58,074 nucleotides of DNA from a virus (taxonomy: Duplodnaviria > Caudoviricetes), in IMG/VR virus record IMGVR_UViG_3300020727_000860, positions 1 to 58,074 of that record. The stretch is one strand, 5' to 3'. The translations under genes and the position numbers were made by a program. The notes under the pieces are model-generated. The model saw only the letters and a list, made by a program, of their open reading frames with translations, ran no database searches and had not been told where the DNA came from. Positions 15,680 through 52,069 of the stretch are shown here, piece after piece (position 1 is the stretch's first letter; each line of letters opens with the position of its first letter).

Positions 15680-15681
15680 AA

Positions 15682-16407
15682 TTAGTTTATATTTTTTACT
15701 TTTTCAGTTAAGCTTAATGTACTTAATGTCAACTTCTTATTAAATTCATAATCTACTTGATTATTGATAATTTTTAAAATAGACTCTTGTAAAGGATCAT
15801 TCATTGGATTGGAGAAATCAATTACATGACCATCAATAATTATCCTTTTTTCTTTTCCATCATAATTCCTATCATATTTGAATGTTGATATCATGTTACC
15901 ATTTATCATCTCCATATCTAAATCGTCCTTCGTATAGCTACATTTTGTTATTTCCCATTCATCACTAGTTAAACTCAATAACATATAAATATCATGATAT
16001 AAAAGTCTATCTAATATACTTTCTTTGTTTTTATCATATTTATTCCAAATGAAACTGATATTACTAATTTTTTTGTCAATATTCATGAATTCAGTTCTAT
16101 ATAAAAAGGTATTATCAACAAATATTTTAACTTTATTAAGTGATAGTTGATATATCTCTTTTGCTTTAGAAAAATCACCAGTAAACGGCTTTTCACAAAA
16201 GACATTCTTATTATATTGAATACATTTTTTAAGTATATTATAATGAGTTTCTGTTGTTGAACAGATGAATACCCAATCAATATCTTTTTTTAATAATTCA
16301 TCTAAATCACTTTTAGAATTTGCAACATATAATAGATTAGTCAGTGATTGTAACTTTGGTTTTATTATATTACCCCAATATCCATCTCCTATTAATAATG
16401 TTGTCAT
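15682..16407 (-). CDS. Gfo/Idh/MocA family oxidoreductase
   Basis: LIGDGYWG, THY, VFCEKPF, HD. Confidence 0.8.
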   Translation of the reverse strand: MTTLLIGDGYWGNIIKPKLQSLTNLLYVANSKSDLDELLKKDIDWVFICSTTETHYNILKKCIQYNKNVFCEKPFTGDFSKAKEIYQLSLNKVKIFVDNTFLYRTEFMNIDKKISNISFIWNKYDKNKESILDRLLYHDIYMLLSLTSDEWEITKCSYTKDDLDMEMINGNMISTFKYDRNYDGKEKRIIIDGHVIDFSNPMNDPLQESILKIINNQVDYEFNKKLTLSTLSLTEKVKNIN

Positions 16408-17468: not shown

Positions 17469-17496
17469 TAAATTATTTAATTTTTAGTTTAACAAA

Positions 17497-18091
17497 TTAT
17501 GGTCTCCAAAGACCTATGCCACCCCAATGTTCAGAAAATTCACCTGATTTTATTTTACCACTTGATTTTGAACAAACTATCTCAACTTTAGATCCACCTT
17601 CTATATCACACCAATGTTTATATACTTGGTCATCATAAACATTATTTGGATCTATATCATGAAAAACAACATATCCTCTATTGGAAAGTAGTTTTTTATA
17701 CAAATCAAAATCTCTTTTAACACCATCATAACTATAATCTTCATCAATAAATATCAAATCATAATTATCACAATAAGATCTCACATTTTCAAAAATTTCT
17801 TCTGTTTGTGAATTACCACAAAAGAATTGATATTCCTCTTCCATTACTCGGTTTAATATTTCACCGACAATAGGATCAATATCAACCGAAACTTTTTTAC
17901 CTGTAGATAATTTAGAAACAGTCCAAAAGGTTGCACCTGATCTAGTTCCTATCTCTAAAATATTATTGGGTGAAAAGCCTTTTCACCCAATATAAATATG
18001 TTAGGAACTCTTCATACACTTGTAATATTGTCTCTATTTGACCATTTTCTTTTTTTCTTATATACTCTTCAATTAATTCTATTGGTTCCAT
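17497..18091 (-). pseudogene. class I SAM methyltransferase with two +1 frameshifts
   Basis: MEPIELIEE...YWVK | GFSPNNILEIGTRSGATF...VSVDID | MEEEY...IFIDEDYSYDGVKRDF...VFHDI; frame breaks near 17980 and ~17853. Confidence 0.7.
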
Positions 18092-18099
18092 TTTATTAT

Positions 18100-18768
18100 T
18101 TATTCTTCATATTCAAAAATTTTCCACATCATTCTTTCAAATACATGTGGCATACTATAGTCCATCCAACTTTTATAAGTCGGAAATCCAAGTGTTTTCA
18201 AATGTGCTGCATCATGATTTGGTATTACTTTACTTGGGTCTGGATTTTCTTGATAACAGTCGTATCCATAATTACAAGCATTCTTATAAACATCATAAAT
18301 ATTAATCCACCAGTTAAGTGATTTCTTCATAAGAAAATCGCTTTGTAAAATATATTGGTCTCCTGCTGAGAAAAATAGCTCTTCTTCTCTTACAACACTT
18401 GATTTGAAAACAAGAGGTATAAAATCATTTAAATATATCTGACCAGCAGAACTATAAACATCACCAAGTGGTTGTATACCATATTTATCATAGCTATTAA
18501 TTTGTTCCACTATCGTCGGACAATGTGGGAATGGATCACCTTGTAAAAAAGCAATCACTTCTGGGTAGTTACCATAATAATTAATGATATACTCAAAGTA
18601 TGTACCTTCTCCCCTCCACTTATTTTCTAAATAGACTGTCTCGAGACATTTTGAACCAAAATCTCTTTCAATAGGAAGCCCCTTATTATAAACAATAAAA
18701 TTACAATCTAATCTATCTACCCAATTAATATCCTCTTGATATCTAGCTATTAAGCAAACTTTCTCCAT
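18100..18768 (-). CDS. DUF3431-like protein
   Basis: IARYQEDINW, YNKG, FLQGDPFPH, FERMMW. Confidence 0.7.
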   Translation of the reverse strand: MEKVCLIARYQEDINWVDRLDCNFIVYNKGLPIERDFGSKCLETVYLENKWRGEGTYFEYIINYYGNYPEVIAFLQGDPFPHCPTIVEQINSYDKYGIQPLGDVYSSAGQIYLNDFIPLVFKSSVVREEELFFSAGDQYILQSDFLMKKSLNWWINIYDVYKNACNYGYDCYQENPDPSKVIPNHDAAHLKTLGFPTYKSWMDYSMPHVFERMMWKIFEYEE

Positions 18769-22681: not shown

Positions 22682-23659
22682 TTAAAGTTGTGACTCAACC
22701 TCTTTTATTATTTTATCATATAATATTTTTATATCTAATTTATCCATATCAAGTTTTAGTGCTTCTTTATATAAATGTTCATTATTATTTAATAATTCCT
22801 CAGTAACTTCATCGAAACTATCGACCATCAATACCGGGAAATCTTCAAATATTTTTTCTAAAAATTTAGATCGTATCACCACTGGAACTCTCCTCATGTA
22901 TAAAACTTCCCAATCACGATGACATTCACATCCAATTGCATTACCATCTGGACATATTACAAATTTGTGATCTTTAATTTCACGTAAATAATTAATATAT
23001 TCATTCGGACTCTGACCACCTGGACTCTTAATAGTAGCCCATGGTTTATTAAAAAAGTGTTGATTAATTTTTATCCTATTTGGATTGTGTCCTACATTAT
23101 GATTCATATAAAGAAGTTTGGTAGGTTGATATTCGTTATTTATACTATTTAATAATATAGAATGTCTATCATCCCAGAACCATAATTTTCTTTGTATACC
23201 ATAAGGAACTGGCTTAACTTTTCCACCGAATGATATCGCATTTGCTGCGTAAATTGAGATTACATTTTCAGGTATTTTGTCAAAAATCTCATCATCGATA
23301 GGAGTATCATCAAAATATGAAAATATAACAAATTTCATATCTGTTAATTGTGAACATAATTTTAATAAATCATTTTGACTAAAATATTCCTTAACTACCT
23401 TATCTTTATAGTCTCTAGATTCTTTATTTACTAATTCAACCGCTGAATACTTAATCCCTGGTCTATTATACAATCTAATACTATCAATAAACAGTGTCAT
23501 GTATGACTTTTTACCAACAAGACTTCTATACTTGTTAATAAACTCATAATTATTGATATTAGCAGGTTTCATATATCCACCATAGAGTTCTAATCCCGCA
23601 TGGTCACCAAATGAATAGTCACAAATATCTCTTATATATGTTGGGTCTAATAAATACAT
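22682..23659 (-). CDS. exostosin-like (GT47-related) glycosyltransferase
   Basis: KFVICPDGN...CHRDWEVLY...VPVV. Confidence 0.65.
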   Translation of the reverse strand: MYLLDPTYIRDICDYSFGDHAGLELYGGYMKPANINNYEFINKYRSLVGKKSYMTLFIDSIRLYNRPGIKYSAVELVNKESRDYKDKVVKEYFSQNDLLKLCSQLTDMKFVIFSYFDDTPIDDEIFDKIPENVISIYAANAISFGGKVKPVPYGIQRKLWFWDDRHSILLNSINNEYQPTKLLYMNHNVGHNPNRIKINQHFFNKPWATIKSPGGQSPNEYINYLREIKDHKFVICPDGNAIGCECHRDWEVLYMRRVPVVIRSKFLEKIFEDFPVLMVDSFDEVTEELLNNNEHLYKEALKLDMDKLDIKILYDKIIKEVESQL

Positions 23660-26931: not shown

Positions 26932-28236
26932 TTAATATATTTTAAATTCTGGTAAAAATGTTATAAACTTACCATTGAAATCAGAAAGACTTTCCATAAT
27001 ATAATCTGCAAAGTTATGAGTCAATATTATTAGATAATCTACGTGATTATTTTTTAAATAATCACGACTAACTATTTCTATTCCGGTTCCCGGCATAAAT
27101 TTACCTTGCTTAAGGTCTGTATCATCGACTATAAAATCTATCTCATTATATGTTAATCCAATAGAATTTAAGAAAATACATCCTTTAGCAGCAGCTCCAA
27201 ATCCGGCTATTTTTTTACCGTTGGATTTTAAATCCAATATAATTTTTTTATAATTTTCTAAATTGTTTTTAACTTTTAATCCCCAATTTTTATAATACTC
27301 TATATCATATTTTGACTCTTTATCTAAATATTTTTCTAAAGAATCGTCTGATGGTAGTTCAGATGAATCTTTTGTTATTGATAATCTAACTGTACCACCA
27401 TGTATTTTTTGATCCTGAACTTTTATTATTTTTAGATGATGTTTTTTCATCATCAAGTTTAATGGTGTTAGAGAATAATAGTAAACATGCTCATGATAAA
27501 TTTGATCGAATTGAAATGTTTCTAAATCATGTATCCAATAAGGAAACTCTAAAATCCAAACACCATTTTCATCTAAAAGATGATAAACACCATTCACGAA
27601 TGAATTAATATCTTTTAGATGTTGGAATACATTTGTAGAAACAATAACCTTAGCTTTCTTTTTTATAGACAATGAGACATCATACGAGAAAAATTCTGTT
27701 AGTGTTGTTATTCCTTTTGATAAGGATAATTCTCTGAGGTTAGATGATGGATCAATATTTAATAAATCTAATTTATTTTGACTAACACTTTTAAAAGCAT
27801 CTAATAATGTTCCATCATTACCACCTATATCTATAATTAAATCATTGTCATTAATTTTAACAATTGAATTGATATATTCAAACATTACTTTACAATGTTG
27901 TATATAGGGTCTATTTACTTCTGATTTAAATAAGTAGTTTGAGAATAATTTTTTACCATCTACAACACAACTTAGTGAGGTTAATTTAGACTCATTGAAT
28001 AAATTAATATTCAAAGGATATCTTTCACAATTAATAGATTCTTCTCTACTATTATTTAGATTATTAACCAATGGAAAGTCACCTAAGTTAAAGTACATTA
28101 GTTTATCATCACTACCCGTAATAGGACATTTAGTTATAATTTCATAATTAATCATTAAGGATTCGTTTAATTTTTTTATTGACATTGAAACATCTTTAGG
28201 AACGTAACTTGGAGAAAAATCAGCTTCTATCATCAC
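26932..28236 (-). CDS. NDP-sugar C-methyltransferase
   Basis: IDIGGNDG, FDQIYHEH, IHGGTVR, GFGAAAKG; paralogue of the C-terminal domain of 18743-21358. Confidence 0.85.
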   Translation of the reverse strand: MMIEADFSPSYVPKDVSMSIKKLNESLMINYEIITKCPITGSDDKLMYFNLGDFPLVNNLNNSREESINCERYPLNINLFNESKLTSLSCVVDGKKLFSNYLFKSEVNRPYIQHCKVMFEYINSIVKINDNDLIIDIGGNDGTLLDAFKSVSQNKLDLLNIDPSSNLRELSLSKGITTLTEFFSYDVSLSIKKKAKVIVSTNVFQHLKDINSFVNGVYHLLDENGVWILEFPYWIHDLETFQFDQIYHEHVYYYSLTPLNLMMKKHHLKIIKVQDQKIHGGTVRLSITKDSSELPSDDSLEKYLDKESKYDIEYYKNWGLKVKNNLENYKKIILDLKSNGKKIAGFGAAAKGCIFLNSIGLTYNEIDFIVDDTDLKQGKFMPGTGIEIVSRDYLKNNHVDYLIILTHNFADYIMESLSDFNGKFITFLPEFKIY

Positions 28237-29064: not shown

Positions 29065-30255
29065 TTACGAATTCTTCTTTTTAACTCTTCTCTTTTTGCC
29101 AGTGGTAAACACTACTTTATCTTCATCATTATCATAATCCATAATTAATTTACTGCCTTTTTCTGGATTCAATTTGATAATTTCTTCGGTTAAAGTATCT
29201 TCAATATATCTCTGAATAGCTCTTTTCAAAGGTCGAGCTCCATACTGAGGATCAAATCCCTTTTCAACTATATAATTTCTTAAATCATCAGTTAATTCAA
29301 TTTCATATTCTAATTTTTTAACTCTTTCAATCAATCCTTCTAATTCAATATTGATAATCTTATTGATATTCTCTTTAGTTAAAGAATTAAATGTAACAAT
29401 ATCATCAATACGATTTAAAAATTCAGGAGCGAAAGTCTTTTTCAATTGCTTTTCAATAACTGACTTAGATTCTTCCTCTGTATTTTCTTCTCTGGATTTA
29501 GTCATAAAACCTACTCCAGTTCCGAAGTCTTGGAGTTGTCTCGATCCTGTATTAGATGTCATAATGACAACAGTATTCTTAAAACTTACTTTACGACCCA
29601 ATGAATCAGTTAGTTGGCCATCATCCAGTACTTGCAATAAGATGTTAAATACATCAGGATGAGCTTTTTCAATTTCATCTAACAAGATTACTGAGTATGG
29701 TTTTCTTCTAACTTTTTCGGTCAACTGACCACCTTCGTCATGACCTACATATCCTGGAGGGGCACCTACTAATCTTGATACACTAAATTTTTCCATGTAT
29801 TCACTCATATCAATTCTAATTAAAGAATCTTCTGAATCAAACATATATTTAGCCAAAATTTTTGCTAATTGTGTATTATGTGACAATATACCATTTGTGT
29901 AATATCTTTTATTACTAACTTCAGATAACTGAAAGTCATACATTCTCTCTTTGTATCCAAGATTTTCAATAGATATTACAATATCTTCAACATTATCTGT
30001 GATTATTCTATCTCCTATTTCTATATTTTTCACAAAAATTTCAGACATATCAGATAAAAAAACAATATGATTATCAGCACATTTTAGAGACATACCTGAT
30101 GCGGTTTTTAGTTCATAAACATCATATTCTATTGTCTCATGTAGATATTCTATATCTACAAATCCCGTATCTGTCAATATCTCATAGTCTTCTATTTTCC
30201 ATGATTGTGTAAACTTCTTACTATAGTCTTTTGATTTTGATAAATTTTCTATCAT
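29065..30255 (-). CDS. clpC: Split intein C-part (127 aa) fused to C-terminal part of ClpC ATPase
   Basis: LKCADNH (block B), MYDFQL...YYTNGILSHN|TQLAK; RIDMSEYMEKFSVSRLVGAPPGYVG, LLDEIEKAHPDVFN, GARPLKRAI. Confidence 0.92.
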   Translation of the reverse strand: MIENLSKSKDYSKKFTQSWKIEDYEILTDTGFVDIEYLHETIEYDVYELKTASGMSLKCADNHIVFLSDMSEIFVKNIEIGDRIITDNVEDIVISIENLGYKERMYDFQLSEVSNKRYYTNGILSHNTQLAKILAKYMFDSEDSLIRIDMSEYMEKFSVSRLVGAPPGYVGHDEGGQLTEKVRRKPYSVILLDEIEKAHPDVFNILLQVLDDGQLTDSLGRKVSFKNTVVIMTSNTGSRQLQDFGTGVGFMTKSREENTEEESKSVIEKQLKKTFAPEFLNRIDDIVTFNSLTKENINKIINIELEGLIERVKKLEYEIELTDDLRNYIVEKGFDPQYGARPLKRAIQRYIEDTLTEEIIKLNPEKGSKLIMDYDNDEDKVVFTTGKKRRVKKKNS

Positions 30256-30264
30256 ATTATAATT

Positions 30265-31395
30265 TTATTTGTTTAAAAATTCTATACATTTTTGTATTGT
30301 TTCTTCGCGATTTTTTTTGAATTCTGAATCCCAAATCGAAAGAACCTGGAACCCGTTTTCATTTGCTAATTTTATCTTCTCTTCATCATGTTTCCATATA
30401 TCACAAGCCTTATATCCTTTATACTTTCTATAGGGGTGTGGATATGATCCTGATTCATAAATTTTTGGATTAGCATGATATTGATCTCCGTTATACTCTA
30501 TGATTTTACCTTTATCAATTTCAGTAAAATCATAATAATAATTTTTATTATTTTTCGTCAAACAAAGTTCCGAGTTATGAGTAGCGTATTTACAATTCAT
30601 CGAAAATTTCGAAATTATATCAAATAATTCTTGACTAACTTTGGAATATCCTCCTTTTATATTACCATTTTTATATAAACTATTCTGCCATTTATTCTGC
30701 CTTTCTTTCCAAATTCTAACCCCATATTCTTCACCATATTTCTCTATGCATTTTTCTTTAGAAAAGGTTCTCTGTGATTCAGACACCTTTAATTTAGATT
30801 CCTCTTTGTTAAATCCCCTTTCTATCCAATATTCTAAATTGGATGGTAATAATCTATTTTCAAAGTCTACATTTTTAGCAGCATTAGATTGCGACTCACG
30901 TAGCTTACATTTTGCTTCTTCTTCTGATAAACCCTTATTTATCCAAAATGATAACATAGATGGTGTTTGACAAATATTTTTTATTTCTTGTTCTGAAAAT
31001 CCGATATTTTTTAAATTTTCTTTTGATACAACAAATCTATTTTTAACCTTTTTGGAACTATCTGATTGCATTTCGGATATTTTTTTAATGGAGTCAATTT
31101 CAGTATATCCTCTATTAATCCAAAATTCTTTTCTTAATCTATTATTTGATATCATTATATCATACATTTTTTTCGAAATTTTATTATACTCATCGATTGG
31201 TAGAAAGGCTTTCCAAACTTCTTTTCTTTTTAATTTTAGTTTGTTTGATAAGCAATCAATATTAGAACACACATTTATATTTTTATACAATTCAGATTTA
31301 ATTTTAATGATATTAAAAACTAAATTTGATTCACAAATATTGCAAATGGGATCTTTATCCGCCTCAAAAATTGTATTTTTTAATTTATATTTCAT
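30265..31395 (-). CDS. Free-standing putative homing endonuclease (W..RG repeats plus Vsr/DUF559-like nuclease)
   Basis: Repeated (F/Y)WI.RG....A/S; YDF...IIEYNGDQYH...D..K...A...GFQVLSIWDSE; sits between the clpC halves. Confidence 0.75.
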   Translation of the reverse strand: MKYKLKNTIFEADKDPICNICESNLVFNIIKIKSELYKNINVCSNIDCLSNKLKLKRKEVWKAFLPIDEYNKISKKMYDIMISNNRLRKEFWINRGYTEIDSIKKISEMQSDSSKKVKNRFVVSKENLKNIGFSEQEIKNICQTPSMLSFWINKGLSEEEAKCKLRESQSNAAKNVDFENRLLPSNLEYWIERGFNKEESKLKVSESQRTFSKEKCIEKYGEEYGVRIWKERQNKWQNSLYKNGNIKGGYSKVSQELFDIISKFSMNCKYATHNSELCLTKNNKNYYYDFTEIDKGKIIEYNGDQYHANPKIYESGSYPHPYRKYKGYKACDIWKHDEEKIKLANENGFQVLSIWDSEFKKNREETIQKCIEFLNK

Positions 31396-31407
31396 TTTTA
31401 TAATTTC

Positions 31408-32829
31408 TTAGTCCAATTGGGATTGGTTAAGTTTATATATTAAACTCTTAATATCAACTTTTTCTATTTTTCCTGTTTTTTTATTTCTTATCGAAATTTT
31501 TACAGAGGATACAAAACATTTACCGACACCAGTAGGTCCTAAGAAAAGGAATGATCCAATTGGTTTAGTAGGATCTTTCAAACCGATTCGACTTCTTTGA
31601 ATAGCTTTAACAACTTTAGAAACCGCATCATCTTGTCCTATGACCTTACCCATCAAGGTCTCACTCATTTTAGCTAATTTATCATTTTCTTTTTGATTGA
31701 CTTTTTGTAAAGGTATTCCAGTCATCATAGATACAACTTCAGCTACATTATCCTCGGTTACTTTTTGTCTATGATTTTTTTGATCATCTTCCCATTTACT
31801 TCTAGCTTCATCTAAATTAGATTGTAGTTGTTTTTCAACATCTCTAAGTTTAGCAGCTTCTTCATATTTTTGATTTCTGACTACTTCATTTTTCTTTTCT
31901 TTAATTTCAGTAATCTTGTTTTCAATATCTACAATCTCTTTCGGAACCACAATATTAGAAATATGTATTCTAGAACCAGCTTCATCTAAAGCATCAATAG
32001 CCTTATCTGGTAAAAATCTATCCGACATATATCTTGAAGTTAAGCTTACACAAGCTAAAACAGCCTCATCTGTATAAAAAACATTATGATGAGATTCATA
32101 TTTATCTTTAATGTTATTGATAATTTGAATTGTTTCTTCTTCTGTTGCAGGTTCAACCACTACCTTTTGGAATCTTCTTTCCAAAGCACCATCTTTTTCG
32201 ATGTGTTTTCTGTATTCATCCAAAGTAGTAGCACCAATGATTTGTATCTCTCCTCTAGCCAATGCAGGTTTAAACATGTTAGAAGCATCTAAAGATCCAC
32301 TCGCGCCACCAGCCCCAATAATAGTGTGAATTTCATCTATAAATAAAATCACATCTAGATTCTTTTCCAATTCAGCCATCAAAGCTTTAATTCTTTCTTC
32401 AAACTGACCACGGTACTTAGTACCTGCGACCATAGAAGCCAAGTCTAACATAACAATACGTTTGTTATATAGTACTCTTGAAACTTTCTTTTGACCGATT
32501 CTCAAGGCAAGTCCTTCGGCTATAGCTGATTTACCAACACCAGGCTCACCTAATAAAATAGGATTATTCTTTTTTCTACGTGATAAAATTTGTGATACTC
32601 TTTCAATTTCCTTCTCTCTACCAACAATAGGATCAATTTTTCCATCCTTTGCTTGTCGAGTTAAGTCTCTACTGAAAGTATCCAAAATTGGAGTTTTGGA
32701 TTTAGGGTCAACAATTTTTTTGTTCCCTTTGAATTTAGAATCATCAGTATCATCATCTTCTTCTTCAATTGCCATTCTGACATCTAATTTTTTCAAATCT
32801 TCGGTTTCATCTCCAATGTATTTATTCAT
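31408..32829 (-). CDS. clpC: ClpC ATPase N-terminal part fused to short split intein N-part (36 aa)
   Basis: GEPGVGKS, FIDEIH, UVR-like YEEAAKLRD, second Walker A GPTGVGK|CFVSS... Confidence 0.92.
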   Translation of the reverse strand: MNKYIGDETEDLKKLDVRMAIEEEDDDTDDSKFKGNKKIVDPKSKTPILDTFSRDLTRQAKDGKIDPIVGREKEIERVSQILSRRKKNNPILLGEPGVGKSAIAEGLALRIGQKKVSRVLYNKRIVMLDLASMVAGTKYRGQFEERIKALMAELEKNLDVILFIDEIHTIIGAGGASGSLDASNMFKPALARGEIQIIGATTLDEYRKHIEKDGALERRFQKVVVEPATEEETIQIINNIKDKYESHHNVFYTDEAVLACVSLTSRYMSDRFLPDKAIDALDEAGSRIHISNIVVPKEIVDIENKITEIKEKKNEVVRNQKYEEAAKLRDVEKQLQSNLDEARSKWEDDQKNHRQKVTEDNVAEVVSMMTGIPLQKVNQKENDKLAKMSETLMGKVIGQDDAVSKVVKAIQRSRIGLKDPTKPIGSFLFLGPTGVGKCFVSSVKISIRNKKTGKIEKVDIKSLIYKLNQSQLD

Positions 32830-45470: not shown

Positions 45471-46655
45471 TTAGCTTGTTATATTAAGATCGACCATTGC
45501 ATATACGCAATTTTGCGCAATATCTTTTAAATTAAATGACATTACATATGATCCAGTAGCTGTTATCATTCCTATATCTGTTACTGATGACATTGTACAT
45601 GACATAGTTCCAGATGCAGTTGCACTACTGATAAGTAAATTGACATCAGGAATTATATTGATAACACCATCTCTGTTATCAACAACATTATTAATTAATA
45701 ATGAACTTAATGTCGGTTTATCTATAACACTACCAGATAAACCAAATTGTGACAATGATATTGAAGTTGAGAATGTTACACCATAACTAGTATCGTATGG
45801 AACACCTGATGTGGCTCCATTAAATGATATATAATTACCAGAAAAAGTATTACCAACATTACTCCAGAAATAAACCACCGGTGAAACCGAGTCAGCAACT
45901 GGGTTTAACGTATTTATATTGACATTAGGATTATTAATTACATAATTTAATAGAGATTGAGCTTGATAAGCATCATATTCTGTTACAAATTGTAGGAAAA
46001 TAGTACCAATACTAACATCATTTATTATTAAAATGTTTCCTGTTTTTTGTATAGAATTTATACTACTTAATTGTATATAAATTAAAGGTAAAGGAGTTAG
46101 ACGTTTGTCATATATAACGATAGATTCACCGACAACATATGTTTTAATATCAGTGTAATTTAAGTTAACAAATGTAGTACCTGTTTGATTTAAAGTATCT
46201 GTAAATGGTGCATATGTTTCATCAATAGAAGCCATCATAACATCCAATGTTACATTATATTTAGAATTTGGATTAGTCATGTAAATTTGTTTAATTCTAT
46301 GTGTAGAATTACCAGTTAACAACATTAGATTATCCATATAGTTCACTGTTGTTAAACTATCATAAAAAGACCATTGAACATAATTATCCTCTTCTATTGT
46401 AGAATTTGGATCATAGGTCGCTCTAATTAGAACAAATGTCGCACTATCACCAACACCTGATAGATTAAGTAAGTAGTTTACTTGGCCTGCCTTAAGCACG
46501 ACCCTACTTTTAACTATTTGATCATAAGGAATTTTAAGATCATTTGTAATTAATTTTTCTACAGTGTTAGCTCCCTCAATAGCCACGAAATCACCACCTA
46601 ATATTCTAATATATTGACTACTAGCACCAAATATTGTTGTACCGCATGCTGCCAT
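45471..46655 (-). CDS. probable virion structural protein
   Basis: 394 aa T/S/N/V-rich ORF upstream of the collagen-like gene. Confidence 0.5.
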   Translation of the reverse strand: MAACGTTIFGASSQYIRILGGDFVAIEGANTVEKLITNDLKIPYDQIVKSRVVLKAGQVNYLLNLSGVGDSATFVLIRATYDPNSTIEEDNYVQWSFYDSLTTVNYMDNLMLLTGNSTHRIKQIYMTNPNSKYNVTLDVMMASIDETYAPFTDTLNQTGTTFVNLNYTDIKTYVVGESIVIYDKRLTPLPLIYIQLSSINSIQKTGNILIINDVSIGTIFLQFVTEYDAYQAQSLLNYVINNPNVNINTLNPVADSVSPVVYFWSNVGNTFSGNYISFNGATSGVPYDTSYGVTFSTSISLSQFGLSGSVIDKPTLSSLLINNVVDNRDGVINIIPDVNLLISSATASGTMSCTMSSVTDIGMITATGSYVMSFNLKDIAQNCVYAMVDLNITS

Positions 46656-46716
46656 AATTATCTTTAATTTTAATGTATATATTAAAATTCAAAGATTAAA
46701 TTATATTAAACAAAAT

Positions 46717-46860
46717 TTACCAATTCATTCTTCCATCCCACCAACTAACAAATTCATCAAATGTAAAATCATAACTCTCATAGTTGGTATAACCCCAACC
46801 AATATCATTATAGCATAAGTTTACCCTATCACCATCTATGTATAAAGTATCATAAGTGAA
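46717..46860 (-). pseudogene. 3' remnant of a gene truncated at the mini-element left end
   Basis: Open frame FTYDTLYIDGDRVNLCY...WWDGRMNW* running into the element with no start codon in this segment. Confidence 0.4.
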
Positions 46861-47141
46861 AACCAAAGAAAACACAGAAGTCTTTAGCTTCTGTGATTTT
46901 GGTAATTATTCACTAAATTCAATTAAAGGAAAGAGTCTATATTAAATATATAATATGTTAGGAAATTAAAAAATTCTAGCATCGGCAGGGACTGTCGATT
47001 ACAGGTATGGAGCAAAAATAAGACCTGATTAGCTAACTAATTAAAATTGGCACACTAACTGAAGGCAAAAGCAATGAATCATCTAAAAAGAAGGAGCTTG
47101 TCTCCCGAAACTTATCGGTCTTTAGTCGATAAGTAGTTCAT
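46857..47141 (+). mobile_element. Non-autonomous IS200/IS605 mini-element (type A)
   Basis: Near-identical to 4724-5012 with a few substitutions. Confidence 0.85.
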
Positions 47142-47147
47142 TTTTAG

Positions 47148-47218
47148 TTCTCTTATCTCGGATCGAACGAGAATCAATAGGGCCAGAACCTATCGTGTTA
47201 CCATTACACCATAAGAGA
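47148..47218 (-). tRNA. tRNA-Gln(CTG)
   Basis: Acceptor TCTCTTA/TAAGAGA; anticodon arm ATAGG-TTCTGGC-CCTAT; GTTCGAT T-loop. Confidence 0.9.
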
Positions 47219-47839
47219 TTATTTCTTTATACTATTTCTACCAGCAAATGTAATTAACCCAGCATTACAATTAGGACAAATAATTCTTAAATTTTCTAAT
47301 CTGTTATCATTGTTTACTCCGTTGATATGATCCAAAATCAGTGATATCTTCATCCCATTCCAATTATCATTTTGCCCACATAAGCAACATATATTTCTAA
47401 TCAATCCATTTTTAATAATCCTTTTCTTCAAATTGGTCCTACTAGTTGTTGAGTTTTCAACTAATAGCGAATCTATTGGTTGTCTTACAAAATTTTTCAC
47501 CATATTTTCAAATCTTTCAGATTGAGATTCAAAATGATCTATATTTATATTATACATCTTAATATATTTCCATATTACCTTGTAATTACCACCAGCTTTT
47601 CTCAATATCATAAAATCAAGCACATCTGATATACTTTTTGAATTTTCTACAATTGGCCTTATGTTTTCTTCTAGATATTGATTTTTTATTTTAGTGTATT
47701 TTAATTTTAATAATCTAGCCTTTTTTATTATAGCATTTCTATTTCTACTAATGAACTTTGAGCAATATTCTGGTCCATATTTAGCATAATTTTTTAATAA
47801 AAAATCTTTTTCTTCTGATGTCCATTCTATTGTCTTCAT
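47219..47839 (-). CDS. HNH homing endonuclease
   Basis: C..C...LDHINGVNNDNRLENLRIICPNCN; likely start ATG 47839. Confidence 0.85.
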   Translation of the reverse strand: MKTIEWTSEEKDFLLKNYAKYGPEYCSKFISRNRNAIIKKARLLKLKYTKIKNQYLEENIRPIVENSKSISDVLDFMILRKAGGNYKVIWKYIKMYNINIDHFESQSERFENMVKNFVRQPIDSLLVENSTTSRTNLKKRIIKNGLIRNICCLCGQNDNWNGMKISLILDHINGVNNDNRLENLRIICPNCNAGLITFAGRNSIKK

Positions 47840-47894
47840 GTTACTTTTTATTTTTATATATAAAAATAACGGCAACCCCCTAAACCGGCAATTG

Positions 47895-47966
47895 TTGTCA
47901 CACTAGGACTCGAACCTAGAACTAATGGCTCAAAACCATTCGTAGTTACCATTACACCATGTGACA
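47895..47966 (-). tRNA. tRNA-Gln(TTG)
   Basis: Acceptor TGTCACA/TGTGACA; AATGG-TTTTGAG-CCATT; GTTCGAG. Confidence 0.9.
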
Positions 47967-48395
47967 ATCTAAGTAATGTTCAATTGTTATTCCATCTATT
48001 CTTTCGAAAAAATGAAACTCTCTATGGCAATTAGAACATAGTATTATACATTTATCTATCTCACTTAATATTATATCAAAGCTCTTTCCTCGAAATATTG
48101 AAGATCCTATATTAAAATCCTTTTTATTCCCCTTTAAGTGATGAAAATCTAATAAATATTGCCTCCTTTCTCCACATTTTTTACATCCTTCTATTTTAAT
48201 TTTACTCAATTCATATAGAAGTGATGATTTTTTATCCTTTTTTTGTTTTAGTATACTATCTCTTCTCTTTCTATAAGAGATATTATCTAATATTTTTTTA
48301 CACTCTTTACAAAGTGTAATTTTTCCACTTTTTTTACTCTTACAATTGACAAACTCATTAGAATCCTTTGTCAATTTACATTTTCTACATATCAT
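47952..48395 (-). CDS. HNH endonuclease
   Basis: CRKC..CKEC; CKKCG...LDFHH...KC.ILCSNCHREFH. Confidence 0.85.
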   Translation of the reverse strand: MICRKCKLTKDSNEFVNCKSKKSGKITLCKECKKILDNISYRKRRDSILKQKKDKKSSLLYELSKIKIEGCKKCGERRQYLLDFHHLKGNKKDFNIGSSIFRGKSFDIILSEIDKCIILCSNCHREFHFFERIDGITIEHYLDCHMV

Positions 48396-48420
48396 ATACC
48401 TTATATATTTTTGGTATATA

Positions 48421-48452
48421 TTAAAACGAGAAATTAAAGATTCTCGTTTTAA
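48421..48452. repeat. 12-bp inverted repeat upstream of the HNH gene
   Basis: TTAAAACGAGAA-N8-TTCTCGTTTTAA. Confidence 0.6.
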
Positions 48453-48461
48453 CTCTATAAT

Positions 48462-48495
48462 AAAAAACCCTATTCAAAACAAATTGAATAGGGTT
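48462..48495 (-). terminator. Attenuator terminator after the poly-Gln leader
   Basis: AACCCTATTCAA-TTTGTT-TTGAATAGGGTT followed by T-run on the minus strand. Confidence 0.8.
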
Positions 48496-48520
48496 AAAGT
48501 TTTAGCAATGCAACTCCTCA

Positions 48521-48574
48521 TCAATCTGTCTGATTAATTTGTTGCTGTTGCTGATATACATTATTTCTATTCAT
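48521..48574 (-). promoter_or_regulatory. Putative Gln-sensing leader peptide MNRNNVYQQQQQINQTD
   Basis: CAG CAA CAG CAA CAA run; stop 25 nt before the terminator; in frame with the upstream endonuclease ORF. Confidence 0.7.
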
Positions 48575-49231
48575 TGTTATTATATTTTTAATTATGTCTA
48601 AATACTTTTTATCTCTTTCTGGTTTAAAATGTTTGGAACTTGACACATCAATGGTACAAAATTCTATTTTACTTTCTAAACAAGCTTGAAATTTTCTATC
48701 ATCATTGTTTTTAACACTTTCTAACTTTTTATCTCCATATATAGGTTCATAGTGAAATATTCCATTTAGTTCAAATGCTAAATTTAAACTTGGTATATAA
48801 ATATCCAGTTCACTATTTATGGCTTCCTTTCCGTTGAAAATAATTTCAAAAGAAAATTCCTTTTTTAATTCATCCTCTATCCAAGCTTCTAACTTACTTC
48901 TTCTTGTTCCTGTTGATTTATGTGTATTGTTATATTTAGCAGCACATGAACTCGAACAAAAAATATTGGTGGTTTTATTCTTCCTCAATTCATAAGGCTT
49001 TTTTAATACCTTACTATCACAATAAACACACGAAAGTTCTATAATCGTGTTTCTATTTTCATAGTGACATTTTTGACTACAGAATTTTATTTCACCCTTG
49101 TTCGATTTTATTTCATGTTTTATATGCTTTTTTTCTTTTAAAAAATTTTCACCACATTCACAACACTCAACTTTTAACTTATCATTTGATTTCGCCTTAT
49201 CGAATTCCTCCTTGGTATATTTTATTTTCAT
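48521..49231 (-). CDS. Zn-finger plus Vsr/DUF559-like putative homing endonuclease
   Basis: FCSQKC and FCSSSC; ELDIYIPSLNLAFELNGIFHY...D..K...C. Confidence 0.75.
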   Translation of the reverse strand: MKIKYTKEEFDKAKSNDKLKVECCECGENFLKEKKHIKHEIKSNKGEIKFCSQKCHYENRNTIIELSCVYCDSKVLKKPYELRKNKTTNIFCSSSCAAKYNNTHKSTGTRRSKLEAWIEDELKKEFSFEIIFNGKEAINSELDIYIPSLNLAFELNGIFHYEPIYGDKKLESVKNNDDRKFQACLESKIEFCTIDVSSSKHFKPERDKKYLDIIKNIITMNRNNVYQQQQQINQTD

Positions 49232-49292
49232 ATTATATATATTAAATAATCAATATCTGTTTTCTCTACTTATACGAATGGTAATAAATTTG

Positions 49293-49365
49293 TCGAGAAT
49301 GTGCGATTCGAACGCCTCTCCAGAGCCCCAAACTCCATGTGCAACCGGGTTACACCTCATTCTCG
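49293..49365 (-). tRNA. tRNA-Pro(TGG)
   Basis: C1-G72 acceptor CGAGAAT/ATTCTCG, A73; loop TTTGGGG; GTTCGAAT. Confidence 0.8.
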
Positions 49366-49370
49366 TTTTG

Positions 49371-49442
49371 CGGACGTAGATGGGACTTGAACCCATATCG
49401 ACCCTCAAATAGGGCCATTCTTGCCAATTGAACTACACATCC
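49371..49442 (-). tRNA. Atypical tRNA or tRNA-like RNA (possible TTT anticodon, undetermined)
   Basis: Good acceptor, D and T arms; anticodon arm GCCCT-ATTTG-AGGGT is short; extra base before the acceptor 3' strand. Confidence 0.5.
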
Positions 49443-49447
49443 ATTTG

Positions 49448-49518
49448 TTGTCCCTCAGGGATTCGAACCCCAGCTAGATGGACCAAAACCACCTGTACTA
49501 CCGCTATACTAAAGGACA
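49448..49518 (-). tRNA. tRNA-Gln(TTG)
   Basis: TGTCCTT/AGGGACA; GGTGG-TTTTGGT-CCATC; GTTCGAAT. Confidence 0.9.
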
Positions 49519-49574
49519 ATGTGACTTTTTGATAAGCATAGAAGTCTAACTAGTTCCTGTCTTAGAGGAAGTCG

Positions 49575-49657
49575 CGGTCCCGACGGGAATTGAACCCGCT
49601 ACAGTCATAAAACCACGGAGTGACAATCCGCTGCACCAACCATTATGCGCCAAGACC
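49575..49657 (-). tRNA. tRNA-Asp(GTC) with long variable arm
   Basis: GCGGA-TTGTCAC-TCCGT; G73; 15-nt variable region. Confidence 0.8.
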
Positions 49658-49663
49658 AAATTG

Positions 49664-49737
49664 CGGAATGTACGGGATTCGAACCCGTGACCTTCTCCGT
49701 GACAGGGAGACATTGTTACCAACTCTACTAACACTCC
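49664..49737 (-). tRNA. tRNA-Asp(GTC)
   Basis: TCTCC-CTGTCAC-GGAGA; G73; canonical T arm. Confidence 0.92.
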
Positions 49738-49798
49738 GTATTTCTAATTCTAAGCAACCGGTTTCAGGTTCTATGAATTAGTAACAGTCCATTACTTG

Positions 49799-49871
49799 TC
49801 GAAAATGTTGGATTCGAACCACTCCTCTTCCTTCCAGGGGAAGTATGCAACCGGTTTACAACACATTCTCG
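49799..49871 (-). tRNA. tRNA-Pro(TGG), atypical loop
   Basis: C1-G72, A73; CTTCC-CCTGGAA-GGAAG gives C33 and A37. Confidence 0.75.
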
Positions 49872-49880
49872 TTATGACAT

Positions 49881-49914
49881 AAAAAAACCCATTTAGTTTG
49901 TGACTAAATGGGTT
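49881..49914 (-). terminator. Attenuator terminator between leader and first tRNA
   Basis: AACCCATTTAGT-CACAA-ACTAAATGGGTT followed by T-run on the minus strand. Confidence 0.85.
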
Positions 49915-49934
49915 ATAAAAAGTTTTTACAGTTT

Positions 49935-50024
49935 TTACAACATGCAATTAGCCACTCCAGTATCAGTATCCTGATCGGGTTGTTGTGGTTGAACTTGTGG
50001 TTGTATGTTTAAAACTGTTTTCAT
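49935..50024 (-). CDS. Putative attenuator leader peptide MKTVLNIQPQVQPQQPDQDTDTGVANCML
   Basis: 29-codon ORF with 6 Gln, 3 Pro and 3 Asp within codons 8-21; preceded by promoter motifs and followed by a terminator. Confidence 0.75.
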   Translation of the reverse strand: MKTVLNIQPQVQPQQPDQDTDTGVANCML

Positions 50025-50076
50025 AATAGTATATATTATATTTTTATTTTCCCTTTTGTTTTATTTTTTATGAATA

Positions 50077-50107
50077 CAAAGATACGAAGTTTTTTCTTAC
50101 CACCAAA
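50077..50107 (-). promoter_or_regulatory. Bacteroidota sigma70-type promoter for the leader/tRNA operon
   Basis: TTTG-N19-TAtcTTTG; a TAATATATA motif also lies at 50030-50038. Confidence 0.7.
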
Positions 50108-50108
50108 A

Positions 50109-51149
50109 TTATTTTACAAGACTAACAAATTCTTCAAATTTATAATCTGTGAATTCATTTACATAAGTAATTGTTACATTAACTGGTGAATCTATACTCT
50201 GTTTAACTACTGATATTAAATCTTTTTCTTTTTCACCAAGTGGATCGGCTATTATTTGTAGTTCTAAGTCATTTATAGTTTTTTGAATAACTTTAAATCT
50301 TTTTATACCAAATTTATCATATTGTGGTGATCCAAATAATGGCCATTTTTTATCACCATTTGGCATAACAAACATGTTTCTCACTCTACCCTTTATTTCT
50401 TTGATAGTCTGTAAACTTCTTCCACAATTACACTCTCCCATAATAATATGGTCGCCGTGTTTATATCTTTTTATATAAGGATTTGTCAAACAAGTAACTA
50501 TAATTCCACCATCTTCATCAGTTTCCACTATTATATTTTCCATAACATGCATCACAGATGGATTATCCGGACATTGTATTGCTATTGTTCCACACTCTTC
50601 ACTTGAATACATAGTTCCTCCTAATTCTCCTGTTCCTTTCCAGTCAATAAAATTACTTAATTTAGATGTATCTAATTGTTTAAATACTGATGGATAACAT
50701 TGTATGTATTGTGGATTAATATTATCCAACCATTTTTGTAATTCTAATGTTGGTTTAATTCCACTCACAAATGCTTTTCCTTGTATTGGGTAAATATTTT
50801 TTGGAAAGCCCCAATTATCCATCGTGATGGATGGAGCACCTGGTTTTATAATAGCTATATTCTTTGTAACATCCCATTTTCTCCATATCATTTCTCTGAT
50901 ATTTGTTGCAGCATGCCATATAATATCATGATATGTTTTTTCAACTTTTACTGGTTCGCCAGTTGAACCAGATGTATTTGAGGAGTGAACTCCTCTTCTC
51001 ATTTCAATTTTTCTTAAATCTTCCTTAGTAATGATTTTATATTTGTTCAATATACCTCTATCATATTTGTGCATCCATTGAGTCACCTCAAGATTTATTA
51101 ATAATGTCTGTATATCTTTTTCTACTTTATCTTGTGTTAAAATTTCCAT
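50109..51149 (-). CDS. phenylacetate-CoA ligase/CapK-like adenylate-forming enzyme
   Basis: TSGSTGEP, YSSEECG.IA.QC, RYKHGD, C.CGR, I.GR. Confidence 0.8.
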   Translation of the reverse strand: MEILTQDKVEKDIQTLLINLEVTQWMHKYDRGILNKYKIITKEDLRKIEMRRGVHSSNTSGSTGEPVKVEKTYHDIIWHAATNIREMIWRKWDVTKNIAIIKPGAPSITMDNWGFPKNIYPIQGKAFVSGIKPTLELQKWLDNINPQYIQCYPSVFKQLDTSKLSNFIDWKGTGELGGTMYSSEECGTIAIQCPDNPSVMHVMENIIVETDEDGGIIVTCLTNPYIKRYKHGDHIIMGECNCGRSLQTIKEIKGRVRNMFVMPNGDKKWPLFGSPQYDKFGIKRFKVIQKTINDLELQIIADPLGEKEKDLISVVKQSIDSPVNVTITYVNEFTDYKFEEFVSLVK

Positions 51150-51583
51150 ACAAAAAATGAATAATCATTAAATATTTTAGAGTCTGTTGGATTTATTTGA
51201 AAATCTTCCGACTTTGGAAAATATTCAGCTATTCGCATGGTGGGTAACTTGTAGTTAAAGCTTCTGGTAATAAATACATTACAATGATTACTAGCCATAT
51301 CTAAAATCCCATCACATAATTTTTTATTGAAGCAAAGGCCACCATCTAATATTATATTAGAATAGTAATTTTTGTTTGTTAACCAATCTTGTACAATCAT
51401 ACTTGGTCCTTTATACCATGGATCTATATCCATTTGATAGTCACTTATTGGAATTAAATTTTTAGTACATCCTAAAAGAAGGGTTGTACCTTTTGAAAGA
51501 TATGATTTGTATATTTCAACATCATCATTTGATGGTGATAATGGATGTGGAAAGTCCTTTGACCAATAAGTATTATCTAACAT
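51137..51583 (-). CDS. hypothetical protein, possibly a degenerate methyltransferase fold
   Basis: TLLLGCT, IILDGGL. Confidence 0.55.
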   Translation of the reverse strand: MLDNTYWSKDFPHPLSPSNDDVEIYKSYLSKGTTLLLGCTKNLIPISDYQMDIDPWYKGPSMIVQDWLTNKNYYSNIILDGGLCFNKKLCDGILDMASNHCNVFITRSFNYKLPTMRIAEYFPKSEDFQINPTDSKIFNDYSFFVWKF

Positions 51584-51601
51584 AATTTTTTATTCTTTTA
51601 G

Positions 51602-52069
51602 TTATATTAAATACTCCTTTGCACTTCCAGGTTTAAAAATCTCTAATTGCCTGATTGAGGTAGATGATATATGTTCAAATTTTTTATCACACATTATAAA
51701 TACCGATTTAACCTCTGGTTTGAAATCGTGAATAAAAGATAACTGATTATTTTCATATGACAAATCATCACCATTTCTTAACCCACGAACTAGTATAGCA
51801 TTGTAACCTTCTAACTCTTTTTGATCAATAAATTCATGAAGAAAAGTATAATACATTTCTACTTTTCTACCTATTTTCTGTGATAATTCCTGATCCCTGG
51901 GAACCCCGGAGTTATTTACCACATCATGTATTGAAACTTTAGCTGGATTAACACCTATCGCGACTAGAACATTTTCTTTTCCAAAGATTTTTTCAGCTTT
52001 TTCCACAATATTTAAATGTCCTACATGAAAAGGATTAAAACTGCCAGCATAAATAGCTAATGTTTTCAT
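51602..52069 (-). CDS. coaD: phosphopantetheine adenylyltransferase
   Basis: AIYAGSFNPFHVGH, LVRGLRN..D..YE, ISSTSIRQL. Confidence 0.85.
   Translation of the reverse strand: MKTLAIYAGSFNPFHVGHLNIVEKAEKIFGKENVLVAIGVNPAKVSIHDVVNNSGVPRDQELSQKIGRKVEMYYTFLHEFIDQKELEGYNAILVRGLRNGDDLSYENNQLSFIHDFKPEVKSVFIMCDKKFEHISSTSIRQLEIFKPGSAKEYLI

Follow-up and report, generated by a model that had tools for sequence, protein, structure and literature searches.

Organization of the tRNA locus

The window analysed here is a 58,074-nt stretch of viral DNA (IMG/VR record IMGVR_UViG_3300020727_000860). On its minus strand, a promoter of apparent Bacteroidota type starts right after the stop codon of a gene encoding a 346-aa protein, and is followed by a 29-codon open reading frame (ORF), an intrinsic terminator and a tRNA array. 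A second unit, composed of a leader with a run of Gln codons, a terminator and Gln tRNAs, lies 1.4 kb downstream. The features of the two units are as follows.

50107-50077, minus strand: promoter (-33 TTTG at 50107-50104, 19 nt, -7 TAtcTTTG at 50084-50077)
50024-49935, minus strand: leader ORF 1, 29 codons plus stop, with 6 Gln, 3 Pro and 3 Asp
50003-49962, minus strand: putative regulatory codons 8-21 of leader 1
50009-50003, minus strand: segment 1, predicted to pair with 49945-49939 (1:2 helix; weak evidence)
49956-49938, minus strand: segment 2, predicted 5' arm of the antiterminator, covering the last six sense codons of leader 1
49914-49881, minus strand: intrinsic terminator 1 (segments 3 and 4), 12-bp stem, 5-nt loop, run of 7 T
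49870-49800, minus strand: non-canonical tRNA-Pro(UGG)-like gene, starting 10 nt after the T-run
49737-49664, minus strand: tRNA-Asp GUC
49657-49575, minus strand: tRNA-Asp GUC with a long variable arm
49518-49448, minus strand: tRNA-Gln UUG
49441-49372, minus strand: tRNA-like gene with an aberrant anticodon loop
49366-49294 (approximate), minus strand: second Pro(UGG)-like element
49231-48521, minus strand: HNH homing-endonuclease ORF (phrog_559) that runs in frame into leader 2
48574-48521, minus strand: leader ORF 2, 17 codons from the in-frame ATG, 6 of them Gln, including a run of five
48531-48511, minus strand: predicted 5' arm of antiterminator 2, spanning the stop codon of leader 2
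48495-48462, minus strand: intrinsic terminator 2, 12-bp stem, 6-nt loop, T-run
47966-47895, minus strand: tRNA-Gln UUG, behind an inserted HNH gene (48395-47952)
47218-47148, minus strand: tRNA-Gln CUG, behind a second inserted HNH gene (47875-47219)

The leader ORF of the first unit begins 53 nt after the -7 box. Of its codons 8-21, 12 of 14 encode Gln (CAA x5, CAG x1), Pro (CCA x2, CCC x1) or Asp (GAT x3), as the earlier note had stated. By Q+P+D content (12 of 28 residues, binomial p 1.4e-4), it ranks 1 of 351 small ATG-started ORFs in the window. Eleven hairpin terminators were found in the window against 2.2 expected, and only the two listed above are followed by tRNAs. However, the promoter motif alone is not enriched in the window (6 matches against 3.8 expected).

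The tRNA genes were predicted with ARAGORN and Rfam models. The two tRNA-Asp genes (60.4 and 43.2 bits) and tRNA-Gln UUG (53.6 bits) are solid. The first Pro-like gene, with anticodon UGG and C at position 33, was recognized only by Rfam (32.7 bits) and was missed by ARAGORN; an identical copy is present in L013, an IMG/VR locus. The aberrant gene scored 31.5 bits and was called Lys UUU by ARAGORN. The second Pro-like element was found by neither tool, but it is 83-87% identical to the first over two direct-repeat blocks shared with 49796-49876. It should be noted that in relatives canonical tRNA-Pro UGG genes occur in the homologous arrays, including one directly before the Gln leader. The HNH ORF into which leader 2 is fused is absent at this place in L013, and free-standing homologues of leader 2 occur in a related 109-kb viral contig (G011), in two complete huge phages (LR756502.1 and LR745206.1, of 642 and 635 kb) and in the loci L180 and L185.

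Recurrence of leader-terminator-tRNA units

The same layout recurs 33 times: 2 units in the window, 9 in G011, 7 in metagenome contigs, and 15 in the two complete huge phages, with 7 in LR756502.1 and 8 in LR745206.1. Three more units were found in the 735-kb phage. In the first 58 kb of G011 there are 14 strong terminators, nine hairpins sit directly 5' of tRNA clusters, and one sits 5' of an ArgRS-like gene; each is preceded by a short ORF ending 19-31 nt before the stem. The extended promoter found in the window also stands before homologous leaders in L013/G011 and in the two complete huge phages. However, some clusters have no detectable unit, namely 2 of 5 regions in the 735-kb phage and 3 of 3 regions in the 484-kb phage.

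Ten IMG/VR loci carry a homologue of the upstream 346-aa gene at 52-64% identity, but none of the 10 has a tRNA within the locus, the downstream DNA is unrelated, and their whole records hold 0-3 tRNA matches. An exact search for the terminator in IMG/VR gave 0 hits, a 25-nt Asp-tRNA pattern found only L013, and a 22-nt 5'-UTR pattern found L013 plus 4 unrelated loci without tRNAs. The promoter pattern is generic, occurring in at least 119 stretches; among the 84 copies scanned with ARAGORN, only that of G011 itself is followed by a leader, terminator and tRNA, while two others have tRNAs after ordinary genes. A blastn search against GenBank phages matched only tRNA-sized pieces, covering at most 8% of the query.

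Leader codons match the downstream tRNAs

The earlier note had proposed testing whether leader codon content co-varies with the downstream anticodons in related large phages. This test was strongly positive in three independent genome-scale data sets and in further contigs. In G011, leader content matches the downstream tRNAs for Lys; Ser/Arg; Tyr/Glu; Gly (plus Ile-UAU-like and Ala-like); Leu/Asn/Ile/Cys/Val/Thr; Gln/Pro/Asp; and Gln, and only 3 of 362,880 leader-to-cluster permutations reach the observed match. However, one G011 unit (11 codons, before Leu-UAG) shows no match, with 1 of 10 residues. The units of LR756502.1 and LR745206.1 include His/Phe/Lys(/Trp) leaders before His, Phe, (Trp) and Lys tRNAs, and in both genomes the true assignment is the single best of 5,040 permutations. 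The three units of the 735-kb phage have leaders of Met/Gln/Ile/Glu, of Leu (before five Leu tRNAs) and of Trp/His/Phe/Lys/Ser. Furthermore, the same design with an Asn/Arg leader precedes AsnRS (414 bits) plus ArgRS-like genes in LR745206.1 and G011.

Six sequence variants of the Gln/Pro/Asp leader all keep an ATG-started ORF of 27-32 codons, and the four unambiguous internal indels are 3, 9, 3 and 3 nt. Outside the enriched residues the peptides diverge, although the last three residues are the same in 3 of the 6 variants, and the conserved ends coincide with RNA pairing segments.

Alternative RNA structures

The pairing of 49955-49945 with 49910-49900 proposed in the earlier note was recovered by RNAduplex as 49956-49938 with 49914-49899 (-11.9 kcal/mol, p 0.066 against 300 shuffles). 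The corresponding helix of the second unit had -17.2 kcal/mol (p 0.003). In 11 of 11 units, p values were between 0.003 and 0.09 against shuffles, and Fisher's test on the nine G011 units gave 2e-8. Cognate pairs of leader 3' end and terminator 5' arm averaged -11.1 kcal/mol and non-cognate pairs -6.1 kcal/mol; only 7 of 362,880 permutations do as well, and 1 of 5,040 in each of the two complete huge phages. Thus, each leader's 3' end pairs best with the 5' arm of its own terminator. However, for the Gln/Pro/Asp family itself the antiterminator is individually weak and not clearly better than shuffled leaders (p 0.066, 0.09, 0.31, 0.24, 0.11 and 0.085 in six variants).

Among the six variants, six terminator stem pairs change on both sides in the +1 register, and terminator 2 shows two compensatory stem changes relative to L013. 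The antiterminator core helix (GGCUA with UAGCC, or GACUAA with UUAGUC) is 85.7% paired, with G-C/A-U/G-U covariation. The 1:2 helix, present in the MFE fold, has 82.9% of cells paired with one compensatory pair, which is weak evidence, and the shuffle controls of the pair counts of both helices are not significant with six sequences. Folding with a ribosome mask gave the antiterminator with the ribosome at codons 8, 12 or 16 and a free 5' arm with the ribosome at the stop codon, reproducing the expected switch. However, the full-length MFE always contains the terminator, so the switch must be kinetic. In addition, in several long leaders the upstream arm ends 21-35 nt before the stop codon, where a terminating ribosome may not cover it.

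A proposed attenuation mechanism

On the basis of these computational data, we conclude that the units are most likely ribosome-mediated (leader-peptide) transcription attenuators of the trp/his/pheST type that gate phage tRNA genes, which supports the interpretation of the earlier note. We propose that host RNA polymerase starts at 50107-50077 and transcribes the leader while a ribosome translates it. If charged tRNA-Gln, tRNA-Pro and tRNA-Asp are plentiful, the ribosome would run to the stop codon and cover the last codons (49956-49938), so that the terminator hairpin (49914-49886) forms and transcription stops at the T-run. If decoding of Gln/Pro/Asp codons is slow, the ribosome would stall within codons 8-17, leaving the last codons free to pair with the terminator's 5' arm and loop, and the polymerase would read through into the Pro/Asp/Gln tRNA genes. 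The products would relieve the stall, making the loop self-limiting. The second unit is proposed to work in the same way on the Gln tRNAs. Translation of the leader, stalling, coupling to the polymerase and read-through are inferred, with transcription-translation coupling in the unknown host being assumed. The four RNA or possible-RNA sequencing runs found hold only short pieces over the tRNAs, mostly under 95% identity, with nothing continuous over the leader, and are uninformative either way.

Other explanations were considered unlikely to varying degrees. The physiological signal might be amino-acid starvation of the host rather than a shortage of tRNA molecules, since a stalled ribosome presumably cannot tell a missing tRNA from an uncharged one, as in trp/his attenuators, and since the same design precedes AsnRS and ArgRS-like genes, where charging is the issue. 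However, making more tRNA does not relieve amino-acid starvation, so the loop would have no pay-off, and the match is to the very tRNA species encoded behind each terminator and follows the regrouping of tRNAs between genomes. It is similarly unlikely that the short ORFs are sensed by translation with a different read-out, such as control of precursor processing or stability, Rho-dependent polarity, or an opposite polarity in which efficient translation opens the terminator. The absence of transcript data, the thermodynamic dominance of the terminator and the position of the upstream arm in some units leave room for this reading. Nevertheless, the stop codon lies 19-33 nt before the stem in all units measured, too far for a terminating ribosome to melt the terminator, the hairpins are canonical intrinsic terminators with T-runs, and the cognate-specific complementarity is to the 5' arm, as in classical attenuators.

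Still more doubtful is that the short ORF is an ordinary small-protein gene with its own promoter and terminator, the tRNAs being expressed by leak-through or by a phage antitermination factor for timing, and the codon match being incidental. Phages probably use antitermination for early/late timing, and the shared last three residues of some variants would fit such a gene. However, the peptides diverge outside the enriched residues, chance cannot give the leader-to-tRNA match seen in three genomes, and the 10 nt between the T-run and the first tRNA in the window leave no room for another promoter. An artefact of an AT-rich genome, with many small ORFs and hairpins and with CA-rich repeats mimicking Gln/Pro codons, could draw on a short direct repeat in the leader (12 nt) and on the lack of promoter enrichment, but it is refuted by the permutation tests on codon match and pairing, and is also opposed by the rank of the ORF, the excess of terminators and the 33 units with matching content in five data sets.

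Comparison with known systems

Leader-peptide attenuators of amino-acid biosynthesis operons (trp, his, leu, thr, ilv and pheA of enterobacteria) share with these units a short leader ORF with a cluster of codons for the controlled amino acid, an intrinsic terminator, a mutually exclusive antiterminator overlapping the terminator's 5' arm, a stop codon placed so that a terminating ribosome blocks the antiterminator, and possibly a 1:2 helix. Here, however, the regulated genes are tRNAs rather than enzymes, the product that would close the loop is the decoder itself, and leaders often mix 2-6 amino acids to fit a mixed tRNA array. The elements are also phage-borne, come in 7-9 copies per genome, and sit in a Bacteroidota-type promoter context. 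No Rfam leader family was found at 46500-50400, even at E up to 10. In the pheST attenuator (pheM leader), leader-peptide attenuation is applied to phenylalanyl-tRNA synthetase, a component of the translation apparatus, and the Asn/Arg leader before AsnRS and ArgRS-like genes is a direct analogue; in the window, the targets are tRNA genes. The E. coli tRNA-Phe genes pheV and pheU have promoters directly upstream, and neither has a leader ORF or terminator upstream.

T-box riboswitches likewise sense the state of one specific tRNA and switch between a terminator and an antiterminator upstream of translation-related genes. However, they bind the tRNA directly and have no leader ORF, whereas sensing here is proposed to go through a translating ribosome, and no T-box or other cis-regulatory Rfam family was found at 46500-50400. 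The tRNA gene clusters of large phages (T4, T5, KVP40 and others) are often interspersed with homing endonuclease genes, as in the window. Full-text literature searches found no leader-peptide or attenuator control of such clusters, without examination of those phages' sequences, and the main text of the 2020 huge-phage paper, its supplement not included, has 0 occurrences of 'attenuat', 'leader' or 'terminator'.

Implications for phage tRNA genes

Why phages carry tRNA genes is a long-standing question, with codon-usage compensation, replacement of a decaying host pool, and escape from anticodon nucleases as candidate answers. In this huge freshwater phage, the putative sensor in front of a tRNA block is written in the codons that those tRNAs read, which argues that the tRNAs are made on demand, so that the phage probably makes a tRNA only when ribosomes run short of it. 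The link to host anticodon nucleases suggested in the earlier note is not supported by any result here and remains speculation; the units cover nearly all amino acids, which fits general supply-on-demand control better than a specific counter-defence.

A broader reading, which we consider more likely than not, is that huge Bacteroidota phages run a modular network sensing translation capacity codon family by codon family, in which every tRNA sub-array, and at least some phage aminoacyl-tRNA synthetase genes, sit behind their own leader peptide sampling exactly the codons the array serves. The virus would therefore measure in real time which decoders the infected cell lacks and transcribe only those. 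This would be an autonomous, self-limiting tRNA homeostat, and would also compensate automatically for host tRNA loss, including loss caused by tRNA-cleaving defence systems.

To our knowledge, this would be the first case of tRNA genes under leader-peptide attenuation, and a rare example of this mechanism in a virus and in the Bacteroidota context. It would imply transcription-translation coupling during infection. The 7-9 orthogonal units per genome, together covering nearly all amino acids, would also be a natural tool-kit of codon-specific sensors of translation capacity.

Identification of a candidate leader-peptide attenuator upstream of the tRNA array

The earlier note had proposed a promoter, a short leader ORF with Gln, Pro and Asp codons, an intrinsic terminator and a tRNA array, and every one of these elements was confirmed on the minus strand:

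50107-50104 and 50084-50077, minus strand: promoter elements TTTG and, 19 nt later, TAtcTTTG, lying directly after the stop codon of a 346-aa gene
50024-49935, minus strand: ATG-started leader ORF of 29 codons
49914-49881, minus strand: perfect 12-bp hairpin with a 5-nt loop and seven T, beginning 20 nt after the leader stop codon
tRNA array, minus strand: beginning 10 nt after the T-run

The promoter elements have what appears to be the form of the Bacteroidota housekeeping promoter. However, the bare motif is not enriched in the window (6 matches against 3.8 expected). Of codons 8-21 of the leader ORF, 12 of 14 are Gln (CAA x5, CAG x1), Pro (CCA x2, CCC x1) or Asp (GAT x3), exactly as the note had reported. 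Among 351 ATG-started ORFs of 15-45 codons in all six frames, this ORF has the highest Gln+Pro+Asp content (0.43; the next is 0.33), corresponding to 12 of 28 residues against a background of 0.135 (binomial p 1.4e-4). A scan of 46000-52000 found 11 terminator-like sites against 2.2 expected. The 346-aa protein encoded upstream of the promoter (50109-51149, minus strand) has no Pfam or PHROG match, carries a Ser/Gly/Thr-rich motif, and is conserved at 52-64% identity in ten IMG/VR contigs.

The tRNA array was examined with ARAGORN and Rfam. Asp GUC, a second Asp GUC with a long variable arm (49575-49657), and Gln UUG were solid predictions. The first 'Pro' (UGG, with C at position 33) was seen only by Rfam, at 32.7 bits. 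The gene described in the note as atypical (49372-49441) scored 31.5 bits and has an aberrant anticodon loop, and the last 'Pro' was found by neither tool, though it repeats the first. The Pro-like tRNA at 49797-49873 is identical in G011, a related 109-kb viral contig, and was also found without a single difference on short contigs of two wastewater runs tentatively labelled as RNA. The odd gene is therefore conserved and widespread.

Many of these phage tRNAs are non-canonical. Class I tRNAs carry long variable arms (Asp 83-84 nt in the window; Lys 89-91, Glu 87, Gln 83, Cys 88, Val 87, Thr 86, and Asn 88 nt in G011), and ARAGORN reported anticodon loops of odd length ('gt', 'cg', 'tt', 'gtag', 'ttac'). 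There are also Pro-UGG genes with C33 and, in G011, an Ala-like gene (G3:U70) at 23545-23609 that lacks an anticodon arm. Such features were noted in the window, in G011 (loci L055-L057) and in loci L191-L199.

Genomic context and a second unit

The IMG/VR viral record of 58,074 bp has 28% G+C and long co-directional gene arrays, and the DNA runs holding this stretch are freshwater metagenomes. Its Lon-like protease is 79% identical in protein to two GenBank 'uncultured phage' genomes of 642,428 and 634,780 bp. These lengths match the 642- and 634-kb genomes of the 2020 huge-phage study, which places them in the 'Mahaphage' clade and predicts Bacteroidetes hosts (PMC7162821); that the records are the same genomes is inferred from the lengths. 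The Lon-like ATP-dependent protease (phrog_4871; 29065-32829, minus strand) is split, with profile positions 134-510 in ORF 31408-32829 and positions 510-758 in ORF 29065-30255. A 376-aa ORF of unknown function (30265-31395) sits between them and may be an inserted element. The window also encodes sugar-nucleotide genes (13957-21358, minus strand), namely a UDP-glucose dehydrogenase-like gene and an 871-aa protein with a nucleotide-sugar epimerase part, and a protein with a tRNA-methyltransferase-like region at 26932-28236.

The tRNA region is interspersed with three HNH homing-endonuclease genes, one of which overlaps a second unit of the same layout:

49231-48521, minus strand: HNH homing-endonuclease ORF, inserted between the last Pro-like tRNA and the Gln leader
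48574, minus strand: in-frame ATG followed by 16 codons, six of them Gln (binomial p 6e-6)
48495-48462, minus strand: second 12-bp terminator, 25 nt later

Behind this terminator, separated by two more HNH genes, are tRNA-Gln UUG and tRNA-Gln CUG. The endonuclease gene has no stop codon of its own, reads in frame through the ATG and Gln run of the leader, and ends at the stop codon of the leader, so that ribosomes translating the endonuclease would pass through the sensor codons. In the relative L013, a locus that is part of G011, the HNH gene is absent and the Gln leader is a free-standing 18-codon ORF followed by five Gln tRNAs. Its terminator stem differs from that of the window by two compensatory changes.

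Recurrence of the units in related phages

A search of IMG/VR for the odd Pro-like tRNA led to L013. The contig to which it belongs, G011, has 48 tRNA matches, and its promoter, leader, terminator and tRNA order are homologous to those of the window, with 86% identity over the leader region. In the first 58 kb of G011, a simple scan found 14 perfect hairpins with T-runs on the coding strand, of which nine stand directly before tRNA clusters, one stands before an ArgRS-like gene, and four are at the ends of ordinary genes or otherwise unrelated. Before each of the ten, a short ORF of 11-37 codons ends 19-31 nt ahead of the stem.

The composition of these ORFs follows the tRNAs behind the terminator. 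They include a Lys-rich leader before three Lys tRNAs; a Ser/Arg-rich leader before Arg, Ser, Arg; a Tyr/Glu-rich leader before Tyr, Glu x3, Tyr x2; a Gly/Ala leader with three AUA codons before an Ile-UAU-like tRNA, Gly x3 and an Ala-like tRNA; an Asn/Leu/Ile/Thr/Val/Cys-rich 37-codon leader before the corresponding mixed array; a Gln/Pro/Asp leader; and a Gln leader. However, one 11-codon ORF before Leu-UAG shows no match.

A metagenome scan with a 24-nt piece of the conserved 5' UTR returned ten loci, nine of which are such units. These comprised four new variants of the Gln/Pro/Asp leader, one Ser/Arg unit, and near-identical copies of the window's unit and of that of G011. Two of the contigs also carry Gln leaders before Gln arrays.

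The two complete huge phages (642 and 635 kb) have 50 and 61 tRNA matches and carry 7 and 8 units of the same design, including His/Phe/Lys(/Trp) leaders before His, Phe, (Trp) and Lys tRNAs. The 735-kb phage has at least three, including a Met/Gln/Ile/Glu leader before Met, Gln, Ile and Glu tRNAs and a leader with 7 Leu among its 21 codons after the start, before five Leu tRNAs. In this phage the tRNAs are grouped differently from the other genomes, and the leaders differ accordingly, which is the co-variation between leader codons and downstream anticodons that the earlier note had proposed to test. However, with strict hairpin criteria, two of five cluster regions of the 735-kb phage and all three regions of a 484-kb phage (LR756508.1) showed no unit. 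In the 484-kb phage, ARAGORN reported a tRNA with anticodon CUA (an amber suppressor, labelled Pyl) at 735-806 of locus L211, which may indicate stop-codon recoding.

The match between leaders and tRNAs was assessed by permuting leaders over clusters. In G011, 3 of 362,880 permutations reached the observed amino-acid match, and in the 642- and 635-kb phages the true assignment was the single best of 5,040 in each. It should be noted that these genomes are related and hence not fully independent, although the leaders and the groupings have diverged.

Alternative RNA structures

In all 11 units of the window and G011, the best duplex between the leader-plus-spacer and the terminator's 5' arm plus loop was stronger than in most dinucleotide shuffles (p 0.003-0.09), and Fisher's test over the nine G011 units gave 2e-8. 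The upstream arm ends between 35 nt before and 10 nt after the last base of the stop codon; in some long leaders it lies 21-35 nt before the stop codon. As a control that keeps composition, each leader end was paired with the terminators of the other units. Cognate pairs gave -11.1 kcal/mol and non-cognate pairs -6.1, and the cognate leader ranked first of nine for 7 of 9 terminators. Only 7 of 362,880 permutations did as well, and 1 of 5,040 in each complete phage.

For the Gln/Pro/Asp family itself, the helix is modest (-8.8 to -12 kcal/mol, p 0.066-0.31 in six variants), and this antiterminator is the weakest link in the model. It lies in the same alignment columns in all six variants, with 85.7% of cells paired against at most 40.5% when slid. 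One position reads G-C in three variants, A-U in two and G-U in the window, and a second position has C-G or U-A in 3 of 6 variants and is unpaired in the other 3. However, the shuffle control is not significant with six rows. The terminator stem shows six compensatory pairs once the one-column offset of the alignment is allowed for. A possible 1:2 helix joining codons 6-8 to the last codons is 82.9% paired with one compensatory pair, and appears in the MFE fold, which has z = -4.66.

The nascent RNA was also folded with 30 nt masked by a ribosome. For the Gln/Pro/Asp unit, with the A site at codon 8, 12 or 16 and the 3' arm not yet made, the antiterminator forms, whereas with the A site at codon 21 or at the stop codon the 5' arm stays free. 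The Gln unit behaves the same way. With the whole RNA present the terminator is always in the MFE, so the choice must be kinetic, as in the classical systems.

Units upstream of aminoacyl-tRNA synthetase genes

In G011 and LR745206.1 (one of the two complete huge phages), a 15-16-codon leader with Asn and Arg codons, including AGG and AGA in G011, and its terminator precede protein genes (the arrangement lies at 223-1398 and 1421-2500 of locus L202 and at 17458-18755 of locus L056). In LR745206.1 these are an asparagine-tRNA ligase (NCBIfam 414.1 bits, cut-off 414) followed by a divergent ArgRS-like protein, and in G011 they are the ArgRS-like protein followed by tRNA-Arg CCU. This is the pheST arrangement, here in a virus, and suggests that the phage uses the device in the textbook way as well.

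Comparison with known attenuators and inferred mechanism

The device appears to work like the trp/his/pheA/pheST attenuators and meets most of their structural criteria. However, it matches no curated Rfam leader or T-box family, and its targets are tRNA genes. We found no description of leader-peptide control of tRNA genes, in phages or elsewhere, in full-text literature searches (e.g., PMC3082878, PMC7162821) that did not extend to subscription journals and supplements, and neither leader peptides nor attenuators were mentioned in the jumbo- or huge-phage papers searched. An attenuator before the E. coli tRNA-Phe genes was looked for and was not borne out.

Although none of the data examined showed transcripts, footprints or read-through, the best reading is ribosome-mediated attenuation with the decoder itself as the regulated product. 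The stop-to-stem distance of 19-33 nt in all units measured argues against a terminating ribosome melting the terminator, which would give the opposite polarity. The suggestion of the earlier note that the system may respond, for example, to host anticodon-nuclease attack has no support beyond plausibility. In the favored reading, slow decoding of the leader's codons keeps the ribosome upstream, the antiterminator then forms, and the polymerase reads into the tRNA genes. The new tRNAs speed up the ribosome, and termination resumes.
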